This document shows positions 17,084-49,951 of a stretch of DNA of 64,000 bases, piece after piece. Origin of the DNA: Octopus sinensis (Eukaryota). Made by a program: the position numbers and the translations under genes. The number at the start of each line of letters is the position of its first letter. Position 1 is the first letter of the stretch. Below the pieces are notes generated by a model that worked only from the letters and a program-made list of their open reading frames with translations, was not told where the DNA came from and searched no databases. The DNA is taken from NCBI RefSeq assembly GCF_006345805.1, contig NC_043010.1, positions 63,550,001 through 63,614,000 on the forward strand, written 5' to 3'.

Positions 17084-18541
17084 ATGTCTTCTGCTCCAAA
17101 CCGCCTTATAAAATATTCTACTGAAAACTCTTTACCCATAGAATATACCAGAAAACTTCAGTATGCTGTTAACCAGGGCCCACTGCCCTCGGCCATTGCA
17201 GCATTGTCACAGGCCAACAATGTATCGACACAGCCAATTGCAGCGACATCAGCAACGGCAGCAGTTGTGTCGACCCCAGCAGTAGCATCACCACCCCCTC
17301 CACAGCCACCACCACCACCATCCCCAGCAACAACAGTAGCAACAACTAGCACTTCGATTATTCCTCGTATATCCACCCTGAACGACAAACCTTTCTATGG
17401 GGGCATTTATAACAACCAGTTGTCCAGTTATTACTTACAGCCCCATGGAATGCTGCCTAATGTTGCCCCACCACAGAAGCTTGTCCCGAACTGTTATCTG
17501 CCGCAGGGCCACGACAAACAGTTGAGCACCAACGACAACAAGGTCCACCAAGGGGTCAACAGTCTCCCTAAATACCAATCAATGCCAGTCATTCAGAAAG
17601 CTGATACGCCAGTCAAGTCATTTCATTGTGGCAGTTGTGAAAAGAGCTTTGCCAGGAGAAGTGCATTGCAGCTGCACCAGAGACTGCACACGGGCGAGAA
17701 ACTGTTCCATTGCACGTTTTGTGCCAAAAAGTTTGTTCACCGAGACAAATTACAAATCCACGAACGAATTCACACAGGGGAGAAACCGTTCCATTGTGAG
17801 ATCTGCACGAAACAGTTTTCTAGGAAGGACAAGTTAAAGATTCACATGAGCTCCCACACGGGTGAGAGGCCTTACCATTGCAACTACTGCCCAAAACAGT
17901 TTGTCCTGAAAGACAAACTACAGATCCACGAACGGACCCATACTGGGGAGAAGCCGTTTATGTGTGAAATCTGTTTGAAGAAGTTTGCACGAAGCGATCG
18001 TTTGAAAATCCATCGAAGGACCCACACGGGGGAGAAGCCCTACCACTGTGACCTCTGCCCCAAACAGTTTGTCCAGAGATGTTACTTAAAGATTCATCGT
18101 AGAATTCACACGGGGGAGAAGCCATTCCAGTGTGATGTCTGCCAGAAGGACTTTGCACGCAAGGATAAGTTACAGATTCACATGCGGACGCACACGGGCG
18201 ACAAACCTTTTGATTGCGACATGTGCTCTGAGCAGTTCACGCGTAAAGTGCAGCTGCAGGCACATAAGAAACACGTGCATGCAGTTATGAGCAAATTGTT
18301 CTGCTGCGAGGTGTGCATGCTGCAGTTTAGCGAACGGGATGAATTGCAGATCCATCAGACGACACACGCCGGCCTCATGTCATTCCAGTGCGATGTGTGC
18401 AACAAGGAATGCGCAACAATGAGTAGCTTGGAGAGCCACAAAAGGACACACGAGGTATTTATGAAGCCCACACTGTGCAAAAACATCAAGGAATACAGCC
18501 CAGGGAACCTTTTGTGGGGCCCAGTCCATCCTCAAACATAA
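17084..18541 (+). CDS. C2H2 zinc-finger protein, 485 aa, 10 fingers, Ala/Pro/Thr-rich N-terminus
   Basis: Uninterrupted ORF with 10 CxxC-x12-H-x3/4-H units and TGEKP linkers; A at -3 of the ATG. Confidence 0.95.
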   Translation: MSSAPNRLIKYSTENSLPIEYTRKLQYAVNQGPLPSAIAALSQANNVSTQPIAATSATAAVVSTPAVASPPPPQPPPPPSPATTVATTSTSIIPRISTLNDKPFYGGIYNNQLSSYYLQPHGMLPNVAPPQKLVPNCYLPQGHDKQLSTNDNKVHQGVNSLPKYQSMPVIQKADTPVKSFHCGSCEKSFARRSALQLHQRLHTGEKLFHCTFCAKKFVHRDKLQIHERIHTGEKPFHCEICTKQFSRKDKLKIHMSSHTGERPYHCNYCPKQFVLKDKLQIHERTHTGEKPFMCEICLKKFARSDRLKIHRRTHTGEKPYHCDLCPKQFVQRCYLKIHRRIHTGEKPFQCDVCQKDFARKDKLQIHMRTHTGDKPFDCDMCSEQFTRKVQLQAHKKHVHAVMSKLFCCEVCMLQFSERDELQIHQTTHAGLMSFQCDVCNKECATMSSLESHKRTHEVFMKPTLCKNIKEYSPGNLLWGPVHPQT

Positions 18542-45402: not shown

Positions 45403-48192
45403 TCACAGTTGCCACAAATAAGTGCTCATAGGAGGAAATTCTTCAACCGTTTTGTTGATGGAGTTTGAAGAAGTCTTTGGAGGTTTACTGGCAGTCTTGT
45501 TGTGGGTCTTCTTGTGGCGATGTAGTGTGTCGCTCCTAGCAAAGTGTTTAGGGCACAAGTCACAGTGGAAGGCCTTCTCCCCTGTATGGGTTCGTTTGTG
45601 CAGTCGTAGGTAGTGTTTCTGGGCAAATGTTTTGAAACAGAAGTCACACTGGAACGGTCGTTCGCCTGTATGTGTCCTGCGGTGGATATGGAGGGAATTC
45701 CTCTGTGCAAATTGCTTGAAGCAGAAGTCACACTGGAACGGCTTTTCCCCGGTGTGGGTCCGTTTATGCAATTGCAGGTAGTGTTTGTGGGCAAAGTTCT
45801 TGAGGCAGACTTCACACTGGAATGGTTTCTCTCCTGTGTGTGTTCGCTTGTGTATCTGTAATGTGTTTCTCTGAGCAAACTGTTTGAAGCAAATCTCACA
45901 CTGGAACGGTCTCTCCCCGGTGTGAGACCTTTTGTGAACCTGCAGATAATGCCTCTGGGCAAACAGCTTCATACAAACATCACACTGGTAATGTTTCTTT
46001 GTCATGTCACCTTTTATTGAAGTGATGGTGGTAACATAGGTACGTTTCTGAGAAACCTTCTCATGAAGCTTCTTATGAGCTCGTAGTTTGTTGCTCTGAG
46101 CAAACTGTTCGGGACAGAGGTCACAATGGAAAGGTTTCTCCCCCGTGTGGGTCCGTCGATGAATCTGAAGTGTAGTTTTGCGTGCAAATTTCTGGATACA
46201 AAAATCACATTGATACGGCTTTTCGCCGGTGTGAGTTCGTTTGTGAATAACTAAATAATGCTTCTGGGTGAACTTTTTTAAGCAGACATCGCAATGAAGG
46301 AGTTTCTCCCCTGTATGAAGCCTCTTGTGGATTTGCAAATAGTACCTTTGGGCAAACTGCTTGAAGCAAATGTCACACTGGTTCCGTTTTTCTCCAGTAT
46401 GGATGGTCATGTGGGTGCGCAGGTAATAGCGTTGGGCAAACTGCTTGTGACAGATGTCACACTGATATTTCTTCTTGCTAATATGTGTCTTCTTGTGCAT
46501 CTGAAGTTTAATTCTCTGCGAAAACTTTTCAGGGCAAGCATCGCATTGGAACGGCATTTCCCCAGTGTGTGTTCTACGATGGATCTTTAATGTATCTTTT
46601 CTGGAAAACCGCTGAATGCAGAAGTCGCATTGAAAAGGTTTCTCGCCAGTGTGAGATCTTCGGTGTATGGCTAAGTAGTAGCGCTGGGCAAATTGCTTGT
46701 GGCAGATGTCACAAAAATAAAACTTCTTCCCACCTGAGACATTATGAAGATCTTCAAATCTAGGAATATCAGGTGAGACTCCTTGATAACTGCTGGAGTT
46801 GCTTTTTTGAGATAAAGAAGCCTGCATTTGAAGGTGAGGTTGATACTTTGGGGACTGAGCTTCTGGGCTTTGGATTGGGGGTGATGACATTGTTGGAAAA
46901 CTGCTGCTAATTGGAGCTTTAGGTTCTGCTAAGTGGTTTTTGCGATGTCTTTTTAAGACATCTCTGCGAGAGAACTGTCTGTGACAGATGTCGCACTGGA
47001 ACGGTTTCTCTCCTGTATGTTTCCTTCGGTGCATGTGCATCAAATATTCCTGAGCAAACTTCTTGCCGCAGTAATCGCAGAAGAGCTGTTTGAGGGGTTG
47101 AGCGTGACGGGGTTGTTCATCTTCGTCCTCCTCCTCCTCATCATCCTCTTGCAGCTGCTGTTGATGTTGTTTTATGGAGCTCTGCGAGAGTTTGTTCGGG
47201 CCGTATTGTTTTTGAGACACATCACCATGGAATGATTTATCAATACTAGAAGTGGAGCTCTTTTGAGAAGAACTCTCCTTGGATGATTGTCCGCCCTCCA
47301 AGCTTGACTGCATTCTGTCAGTGGTCGGTAAGTAACATGGCTGAGAATACTGGCTGCTGTACATATTGTTACCAGGAAACACTGTCTGACCAATATAGGG
47401 CAGTGGCAGCCTCTGGCTCTCGATAGTCGACTCATGAGAGAACTGGCTCCCAGACAGGTCGCTGTTGCTGTTGTTGTCTGGTTTGTCAACTGGTGAGGCT
47501 ATTCTCTCCTTCTCCAAGTTATGTCTGTGGGAAGAGATCTGTTTACTGGAGATGCTGTTGTGAATGTTTTTCTCTGGAACATGCGACATCCTCGAAGTAT
47601 CAAGAGAGTTTCCATGAGAAAACTGTTTTCCCATGATGCTGGGACTATGAGATGACTTTTCATGCGACATTCTCTGTGAGGCCTGCACATGTTCGTGTGA
47701 ATAGTGTTTACCAGACGAACTACCAACACTGTTGAGGATAGATTTGTCAGCAGCAAGTGATAACCTCTGTGAACTGTGTGAAGAATGAGATGCAGACGAG
47801 GTATGAGAATGAGATGAACTCTGTCTATGGTGAAGGTGTTTGCTGGTCAGTTCATTGTTGTGTTGATGTAGAGACTTCTCAGCGATTGACATAATTCGTT
47901 GCTGCTGGGCATGGTTTGATGTGTGGCTGCTGTGAGAGACATGACCATGGCTGTACTGGGACCGACTCAGGTCACTGTGCAGTGACTTCTCAACAGAGTG
48001 ACTTTGCAACATACGCTGGGTGTCCAGTGCATGATCATTGTTGTGGCTGAAATGTTTGCTGGCCGAGGCCAGAGTATTGTGTATTGATTTCTCAGGAATG
48101 TGAGACATTCGTTGAGGATGAAGACTATGAGCTGGGTGGAAGGGCATCCCATACATGTCATAGTGGAATGGAACACCAGCAGATCTCTCCAT
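45403..48192 (-). CDS. C2H2 zinc-finger protein, 929 aa, 16 fingers in clusters of 2+8+6, His/Ser-rich repetitive N-terminus, acidic stretch
   Basis: Uninterrupted ORF, TGEKP linkers, strong Kozak context aagATGg. Confidence 0.96.
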   Translation of the reverse strand: MERSAGVPFHYDMYGMPFHPAHSLHPQRMSHIPEKSIHNTLASASKHFSHNNDHALDTQRMLQSHSVEKSLHSDLSRSQYSHGHVSHSSHTSNHAQQQRIMSIAEKSLHQHNNELTSKHLHHRQSSSHSHTSSASHSSHSSQRLSLAADKSILNSVGSSSGKHYSHEHVQASQRMSHEKSSHSPSIMGKQFSHGNSLDTSRMSHVPEKNIHNSISSKQISSHRHNLEKERIASPVDKPDNNSNSDLSGSQFSHESTIESQRLPLPYIGQTVFPGNNMYSSQYSQPCYLPTTDRMQSSLEGGQSSKESSSQKSSTSSIDKSFHGDVSQKQYGPNKLSQSSIKQHQQQLQEDDEEEEDEDEQPRHAQPLKQLFCDYCGKKFAQEYLMHMHRRKHTGEKPFQCDICHRQFSRRDVLKRHRKNHLAEPKAPISSSFPTMSSPPIQSPEAQSPKYQPHLQMQASLSQKSNSSSYQGVSPDIPRFEDLHNVSGGKKFYFCDICHKQFAQRYYLAIHRRSHTGEKPFQCDFCIQRFSRKDTLKIHRRTHTGEMPFQCDACPEKFSQRIKLQMHKKTHISKKKYQCDICHKQFAQRYYLRTHMTIHTGEKRNQCDICFKQFAQRYYLQIHKRLHTGEKLLHCDVCLKKFTQKHYLVIHKRTHTGEKPYQCDFCIQKFARKTTLQIHRRTHTGEKPFHCDLCPEQFAQSNKLRAHKKLHEKVSQKRTYVTTITSIKGDMTKKHYQCDVCMKLFAQRHYLQVHKRSHTGERPFQCEICFKQFAQRNTLQIHKRTHTGEKPFQCEVCLKNFAHKHYLQLHKRTHTGEKPFQCDFCFKQFAQRNSLHIHRRTHTGERPFQCDFCFKTFAQKHYLRLHKRTHTGEKAFHCDLCPKHFARSDTLHRHKKTHNKTASKPPKTSSNSINKTVEEFPPMSTYLWQL

Positions 48193-48340
48193 CTTGGGTG
48201 GAGATTAACTGCCTTTCAAATATAATTTATGGTTTAGAAAAAAAAAATAGCTTAAATACCACAACAAATGAGTGACAGCTCTGAATTTTCAAAAATCTCC
48301 TCTTGTCAAATCCAATTTGTTAAAAACAAATTAGATGAAC

Positions 48341-48361
48341 CTGAAAAATGAAAAAAAAAAA
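48341..48361 (-). promoter_or_regulatory. 3' splice acceptor of the minus-strand ZNF coding exon
   Basis: Minus strand tttttttttttcattttTCAG|GTTCAT, 148 nt upstream of the ATG. Confidence 0.65.
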
Positions 48362-49210: not shown

Positions 49211-49526
49211 ATATATAAATACACATACAAGATGGGCCAAAAGTCACACACAAAATAAGTTGAATATGCTTGAGACAAGTTTCAGTTTTTCTAAAATTGA
49301 ACAAAATAAATAAAATAATGATGAATACACATGTATTTGTACATGATGATGATGATGGTGAAGAATAATAATAATAATAATAATGGACTCTTCTGTCGAA
49401 GATGACGTATGAGCATCCAGCTTTTGCTGAAAGACCTGCACAAATGATTTGTTTATAGTAATCAAATGTTCATGCCACACATGAACTCACCCCCTACATC
49501 AAACTGATGTTGTCTGAACAGGTGCA

Positions 49527-49951
49527 ACATATGGATGCAAGACCTGGACACTAAAGAAAGCTGACCAGAAGAGAATTAATGCATTCGAGCATTTGGTGTT
49601 GGAGAAGACTTTTACGGATTCCATGGACAGCGAGGCTCACCAATGGAGAAGTTCTTAAGCAGATCAGGCCGAAAATGTCGCTAGAAGCTAGAATCACCAA
49701 GCATAGATTGGCATATTTCGGTCATATTATGCGGAGAAAGTCCCTGGAGAAGGACATCATGGTCGGAATGGTCAGTGGCAAGAGAGGAAGAGGCTGACCA
49801 AGAACCCGCTGGCTTGACACCATCAAGAGTGATACCGGAATGGACATAACCAATCTGAAGGAAGCGGCCCAGGATAGAACTGACTGGAGGACACTGATCC
49901 AACGAGTAACCGAGAGTCGACTTCGACTGAGCGGATAGATAGATAGATAGA
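49527..49951 (+). mobile_element. BovB-like RTE LINE 3' fragment with (GATA)n tail
   Basis: YGCKTWTLKKADQKRINAFE / WCWRRLLRIPWTAR...YFGHIMRRKSLEK...RWLD...RVTESRLRLSG*; 11-bp TSD gaacaggtgca at 49516-49526 and 49952-49962. Confidence 0.9.

Follow-up and report, generated by a model that had tools for sequence, protein, structure and literature searches.

Finger-derived units without cysteine ligands at the N terminus of an Octopus sinensis poly-C2H2 protein and in its gene cluster

The gene and its N-terminal units

The window analysed here is a stretch of 64,000 nucleotides of the Octopus sinensis genome (NC_043010.1, positions 63,550,001 to 63,614,000; contig C14 below). Its relevant features are as follows, finger-derived units that lack Cys ligands being termed dead fingers.

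45403..48192, minus strand: poly-C2H2 open reading frame of 929 aa, within one exon, with 16 intact fingers (translation and Pfam)
48193..48340, minus strand: 5′ UTR portion of the coding exon, with an AG acceptor at 48341-48342
48100..48192, minus strand: unit 0 (aa 1-31), a dead finger in exact register, with both Cys replaced by Tyr (TAT), His1 by Gln, and His2 kept
47506..48114, minus strand: units 1-6 (aa 27-229), dead-finger repeats of the Ser type, whose amplification likely followed their decay
47305..47505, minus strand: B-C, the core pair of dead fingers (aa 230-296), with homology to the pair at the N terminus of seven cluster genes in which decay is less advanced
47188..47262, minus strand: last dead finger (aa 311-335), in exact register, with Gly and Ser at the Cys positions
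46933..47079, minus strand: first two intact fingers (aa 372-420)
45502..46713, minus strand: array of 14 intact fingers (aa 494-897)
45406..45447, minus strand: C-terminal motif EEFPPMSTYLWQL, with a related motif in 11 of 11 cluster genes
47159..47592, no strand assigned: 434-bp block, likely a gene-conversion tract, 100% identical to L010 and 96% to L009
17084..18541, plus strand: neighbouring gene with 10 fingers, a distant subfamily member, with a shortened dead-finger pair at approximately 17363-17518

The whole open reading frame encodes a C2H2 poly-zinc-finger protein (tandem C-x2-C-x12-H-x3-H with TGEKP-type linkers; PF00096, E value 1.5e-49), and its 16 intact fingers are predicted to bind DNA. 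The UTR part of the coding exon (148 nt) contains no ATG, and an in-frame stop lies ahead of the ATG of the reading frame; translation therefore likely begins at MERSAG. The contigs of X13 and X14, runs which come from two studies and are presumed to represent RNA, exit the window at 48342 and are spliced to an exon 24.8 kb upstream (GT donor, AG acceptor). That exon is situated outside the window, from L012:9146 onward (G000:C14:63623146). In runs X11 and X12, parts of the dead-finger region are without contig cover. Within the intron, positions 49430-49940 resemble, by eye, the 3′ end of a LINE reverse-transcriptase remnant.

The N-terminal third of the protein (aa 1-335, nt 47188-48192, minus strand) contains approximately 10 finger-derived units from which the Cys ligands are absent. 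A preliminary description of this DNA had proposed eight or nine decayed fingers kept in frame; the finger derivation and the open frame were upheld, the count was not, and the repeat length that it gave as 28-35 aa was measured as a period of 27-44 aa. The four repeat peptides quoted there are all present in the translation, the codons were read correctly (TAT and TAT in FHYDMY; GGT and TCT in FHGDVS), and it is apparent that no repeat keeps a Cys ligand, as had been stated, the sole Cys of aa 1-345 (C286) being off ligand position.

The full register of unit 0 is Y11-x2-Y14-x3-F18-x5-L24-x2-Q27-x3-H31, and exact finger-type E-to-F spacing was observed in four of nine anchored units. The close paralogs on C14 are three, L009, L010 and L011. 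Across this four-gene branch either Cys was retained in none of 23 units, two Cys and two His being needed for a functional C2H2 finger. Those 23 units are 29 minus six converted duplicates; they were anchored by eye, with units lacking an EK/DK anchor excluded, and corresponding units of different paralogs cannot be counted as independent. The clearest ones are those of L011, e.g. EKSSHSEMSGKQYSH, to be compared with the intact consensus EKPYHCDICGKSFSQ.

In composition, aa 1-345 include 81 Ser and 38 His, and the N-terminal region is not acidic (D+E 26 vs K+R 32). An SQ/TQ cluster domain was considered and rejected, as 11 motifs were observed against 7.7 expected, a number reached or exceeded in 126 of 1000 shuffles. 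No SQ/TQ enrichment was seen in L010 or L011, and the L009 value was matched by 14 of 1000 shuffles.

Finger origin and the eleven-gene cluster

A 12-finger tandem HMM scored 29.4 bits on the dead-finger region, as compared with -2.2 and -2.3 bits for the best of 300 whole shuffles and 300 block shuffles, respectively, and -11.1 bits for the reversed sequence. The score was thus reached by none of the shuffles of either kind, the control by which the preliminary description had proposed that a finger origin be judged. For the three paralogs, with both profiles, there were likewise no shuffles scoring as high. The PSSM top-5 sum was equalled by none of 500 shuffles in six of eight settings; in the remaining two, 2-4 of 500 shuffles equalled it. 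A genome search with the dead-finger region alone retrieved 47 further loci (E values 3.6e-7 to 1e-3), and the four that were opened were all intact arrays of 10-15 fingers.

A single-finger HMM was marginal for the region (5 of 300 shuffles equal) and, with the bulk profile, fell short of significance for two paralogs, whose scores were matched by 73 and 107 of 300 shuffles. In a Smith-Waterman comparison with the family's own finger consensus, L010 scored 86 and its best shuffle 89. A Pfam scan of the dead-finger region gave no match, and no KRAB, SCAN, BTB or ZAD family was matched at E values up to 10 here or up to 1 in relatives. The N terminus of the neighbouring gene was intended as a negative control, and shuffles scored as high in 26, then 11, of 300 cases; that gene is itself a relative with a short dead pair, and therefore an invalid control, and the finger test misses short arrays. 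The units are homologous to the C2H2 consensus and in register with it, as degenerate C2H2 fingers are. Judged by their scores, they derive from C2H2 fingers.

Protein homologue searches limited to near lengths gave no matches for aa 1-345, aa 890-929 or the core pair of the relatives. A search among 1.84 billion representatives gave none, nor did any of four exact look-ups. In the Atlas, aa 1-345 had no usable match and aa 1-430 matched only generic C2H2 clusters. These blanks are uninformative with regard to squid and cuttlefish, because the first collection does not contain even this protein.

Contig C14 of the 2.7-Gb genome holds most of the 105 Cadherin_2 (protocadherin-type) matches, and a dense protocadherin-type array at 57.2-60.9 Mb is situated approximately 1 Mb from the nearest dead-finger cluster gene. 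A search with the C-terminal pattern yielded 10 matches, all at C14:61.67-63.71 Mb (reversed control, 0). The neighbouring gene at 17084-18541, which faces the dead-finger gene and carries a variant of the C-terminal motif, is the eleventh member of the cluster. The tails of the 929-aa gene, L009-L011, L026 and L050-L055 read E-[YF]-x-P-x3-L/Y-L-W, and six of the 11 cluster genes share a near-invariant 25-residue version. The tail is a candidate cofactor-binding motif, and on visual inspection may be another dead finger.

A dead-finger pair, its second Cys often Tyr, was found together with the C-terminal motif in 11 of 11 cluster genes, all of which thus possess a conserved, subfamily-defining N-terminal sequence of the kind that marks ZNF-associated effector-type domains. 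The seven more distant cluster genes have a less decayed B-C pair, mostly in 28-residue register and with no Cys ligand left; unit B of all seven has His1, and has Tyr in place of the second Cys. When the genome was queried with the B-C pair, four relatives (E values 3e-15 to 3e-22) outranked the other loci among the matches listed (E values of at least 5e-13). A B-C profile matched aa 230-296 of the 929-aa protein with a probability of 93.7 (E value 2e-7) and scored above 600 shuffles on each of the four close-branch N termini. Among the seven genes, pS for the pair was 0.65-0.96 and pN 0.19-0.37 in 21 of 21 comparisons. Most of the seven have, by eye, a finger-like unit right after the Met; relatives have approximately two or three units, the 929-aa gene approximately 10.

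The reach of the domain is so far 11 genes only, which is wider than the preliminary description had it. Its suggestion of a general route by which KRAB-less cephalopod ZNFs gain regulatory domains was overstated, as the domain occurs in 11 clustered genes, and none of the five bulk arrays opened (L005-L008, L014) carries such an N terminus within its reading frame.

Other repeats were also observed. The L050 reading frame (G000:C14:63405000-63412000) starts with three 16-residue units that have the second Cys alone (DVCSKTQY, DVCNKSQF, DICSKAQF), a different truncated finger repeat, and also contains a run of about 60 Gln. L014 has a highly homogenised intact array, with near-identical fingers running on out of frame, and L007 and L008 are near-identical tandem copies with highly homogenised intact arrays.

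Selection, amplification and gene conversion

A likely orthologue was found in run X20, with 52 differences in 670 bases, a part over which the paralogs are synonymously saturated. For aa 1-154/160, 28-29 synonymous and 5-6 nonsynonymous differences were counted (dS 0.36; Fisher P 8e-17), giving a dN/dS of 0.037-0.045 by two ways of counting, from 35 of the 41 differences listed and from a single X20 contig of depth 5 in one relative. The residue changes (A55G, G83A, I100M, L108V and S145T) are all five conservative. For aa 210-328 the dN/dS was 0.13 (30 of the 31 differences listed). As these values are far below neutral, the region is under protein-level constraint, and a dN/dS of approximately 0.04 indicates strong purifying selection. 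The preliminary description had allowed that the region might evolve neutrally or go untranslated; the former is contradicted, and the same ratio suggests that the N-terminal region is translated. Nor do these units behave as degenerate fingers in the sense of non-functional, neutrally decaying motifs. On these comparisons the dead-finger region is ancient relative to the sampled lineages, and selected.

When compared with two paralogs, Arg (13 of 14), Lys (15 of 17) and His (38 of 51) are kept, but Leu (4 of 22) and Asn (4 of 15) are not, and unit lengths are offset by -2 to +3 residues. A constrained spacer, soluble and disordered and without specific binding, would account for the low complexity of the region and for the differing repeat number and length of the paralogs. 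It is nonetheless quite improbable, given the low dN/dS with exclusively conservative changes and given that genuine spacers within these genes (aa 421-493; poly-Q/P tracts) are barely alignable between paralogs.

The same replacements recur among the 23 units: Ser has replaced the linker Pro in 17, the second Cys in 17 and the first Cys in 13, Gln has replaced His1 in 10, and Met has replaced Arg in 13. His occupies the F+2 position in 18 of 23 dead units vs 6 of 94 intact fingers. With ligand columns excluded, a sibling unit is a nearer match than the best of 94 intact fingers for six of nine units of the 929-aa gene and five of six of L011; for two further units of the 929-aa protein, siblings are no nearer than intact fingers. 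In a unit tree built from 22 columns, ligand columns included, 22 of the 23 units are grouped together by a single branch (SH-aLRT 99), with unit 0 outside on a long branch; the columns are few, and shared Ser richness may bias the grouping.

The preliminary description had each of its eight or nine fingers decaying in place. The shared derived states favour an old decay in the ancestor of the cluster and a later amplification of a unit that was already dead. Independent decay of every finger would be consistent with the differing outcomes in the Cys columns (Tyr/Tyr, Asn/Tyr and Gly/Ser in units 0, 8 and 9) and with single-base changes of Cys codons leading to Ser more often than to any other residue (4 of 18). 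It is unlikely for the region as a whole, however, in view of the recurrence of the same replacements, including the linker Pro to Ser change in 17 of 23 units when 4 of the 24 nonsynonymous single-base changes from Pro give Ser, and of the excess over the two or three units of relatives. Decay in place is the probable history of units 0, B and C, and not of units 1-6. In the scheme favoured here, the first two or three fingers of the cluster's ancestor would have lost their Cys ligands, the second Cys often becoming Tyr; a Ser-type unit, dead already, was likely amplified in tandem in the four-gene branch; and gene conversion would then have homogenised the core block between paralogs.

The 434-bp block contains the B-C core pair. 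L010, to which it is identical, is situated approximately 340 kb from the 929-aa gene in inverted orientation, and pS between the two is 0 in aa 201-336 and 0.92 upstream. In X13 the block has a contig to itself, at depth 63, and the contigs on either side have depths of 12 and 18. X20 likewise has one contig for the block (depth 10.9), where two upstream contigs (5.3 and 6.9) meet; its sequence differs from the reference genome at 31 of 387 bases. L009 shows 11 synonymous differences and one nonsynonymous difference within the block. GC-biased conversion left no clear sign in GC3 (0.55 in the block, 0.45 and 0.64 in its flanks). The finger array and tail contain four more tracts of exact identity with L010, each of 69-150 bp (45467-45616, 45710-45840, 45842-45910 and 46985-47098).

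Sharp-edged near-identity, saturated flanks and collapse in both X13 and X20 contigs are features of interlocus gene conversion. Recurrent conversion is likely, because the block is identical amid saturated flanks and collapses in the contigs of a relative. These patterns fit homogenisation of the block in both lineages after their split; Logan contigs merge small differences, so the copies within X20 may not be fully identical. The same merging, the exactness of an identity seen within one assembly, and an X13 block contig whose five differences are all L009 alleles could instead reflect an assembly or polishing artefact. For the block, such an error is very unlikely: the X13 and X20 contigs break at the block edges with summed depths (63 vs 12-18; 10.9 vs 5.3 + 6.9), the X20 block remains one contig in spite of its 31 differences from the reference, and the differences in L009 show that this copy was not overwritten.

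Possible function and comparison with known systems

The preliminary description had called the region probably disordered, and the predicted folds are consistent with this (pLDDT 42.9 and 52.6, with no confident model); since they were built on alignments of only 3 and 7 sequences, little weight can be given to the low pLDDT as a sign of disorder. The dead fingers likely became an unfolded regulatory region, because the Cys ligands have been lost and yet the sequence is strongly conserved and partly common to the 11-gene cluster. With modest confidence, the N-terminal third is read here as a disordered, multivalent cofactor-binding (transcription-regulatory) region carried on 16 fingers. Selection would retain short repeated motifs (R-[MI], [ED]-K, H and K-[QH]-[FY]-S-H), which, together with the Tyr/Gln/Ser-rich core, would serve as docking or self-association sites while the spacing between them drifts. 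Given what is generally known of activation and low-complexity domains, the aromatic-rich core would somewhat favour activation or condensate formation over repression.

Two other functions have to be weighed. The repeats might bind metal (Zn or Cu) via His, as a sensor, a buffer or an element of zinc-induced oligomerisation. With 38 His in 345 aa, 38 of 51 His retained in the paralog comparison, no His changes relative to X20, His in 18 of 23 units at each of two columns (one of them newly gained) and an invariant His1 in unit B of seven relatives, this reading has some appeal. It is considered improbable in that the units lack Cys ligands altogether, 10 of the 23 have Gln in place of His1 and only nine of the 23 retain His2, spacing varies by up to three residues, and conservation of Arg, Lys and aromatics is no poorer than that of His. 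Alternatively, the less-decayed units could hold a zinc-free finger-like fold, with Tyr in the metal site, that binds nucleic acid or a paralog. A near-exact 28-residue register with F/Y and L core positions kept in several relatives and in units 0, 2, 6 and 9, and the invariant Tyr at the second Cys position of unit B in seven genes, are consistent with such a fold. The absence of a confident model, helix-breaking Pro and Gly inside the former recognition helix, and insertions in the units of the 929-aa gene make it a distinctly improbable one.

A disordered cofactor-binding region remains the preferred reading, and would bear on how cephalopod C2H2 proteins act without KRAB. More speculatively, the region may be an octopod counterpart of KRAB, ZAD or FiNZ made from the gene's own dead fingers, in which loss of zinc ligands led to cofactor recruitment, with a graded series in one cluster, multiplication for valency, and paralogs kept matched by recurrent gene conversion. 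If the regulatory reading is true, it would show how ZNF genes can assemble a regulatory domain out of their own defunct fingers. The cluster would offer a rare stepwise series, within one genome, from a folded metal-binding domain to a selected low-complexity region, and the 65-residue conserved candidate domain and the C-terminal motif are ready for tethering and pull-down assays.

KRAB, SCAN and ZAD are N-terminal domains associated with ZNFs. FiNZ, in the accessible part of its description, is a lineage-specific N-terminal domain of ZNFs (PMC10547256). As with these four, to the extent that the sources were accessible, a lineage-restricted conserved sequence N-terminal to the finger array defines a clustered subfamily. 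Unlike them, the octopus region has no Pfam match, derives from the gene's own fingers, is encoded in the finger exon and is not acidic; it is known from sequence alone and from 11 genes, whereas they are found in hundreds.

In mammalian poly-ZNF genes, degenerate C2H2 fingers have been described, in the accessible portions of the papers, as single non-functional motifs that have lost Cys/His ligands and are still in frame inside poly-ZNF proteins, as are the units studied here (PMC2865497, PMC2604467, PMC2667407). There they occur singly, inside or behind arrays, whereas the octopus gene has approximately 10 as a separate N-terminal region that, in contrast to what those portions describe, shows a dN/dS of approximately 0.04, is found cluster-wide and was likely amplified after decay.

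Cephalopod C2H2 families are very large and mainly neural in expression, according to the accessible parts of PMC12513265 and PMC9068888, and those texts resemble the present locus in their clustered single-coding-exon C2H2 genes on a protocadherin-rich chromosome. Neither mentions, in those parts, an N-terminal domain or degenerate fingers, and a literature search, mostly of papers outside subscription, turned up no cephalopod study describing a conserved N-terminal domain that derives from fingers. Poly-ZF paralogs (PMC2604467) and coleoid protocadherins (PMC9068888) likewise share, as far as those sources could be consulted, short homogenised tracts in otherwise divergent paralogs. In the octopus genes, unlike in those two systems as there described, the longest tract spans the dead-finger core and has similar edges in two lineages.
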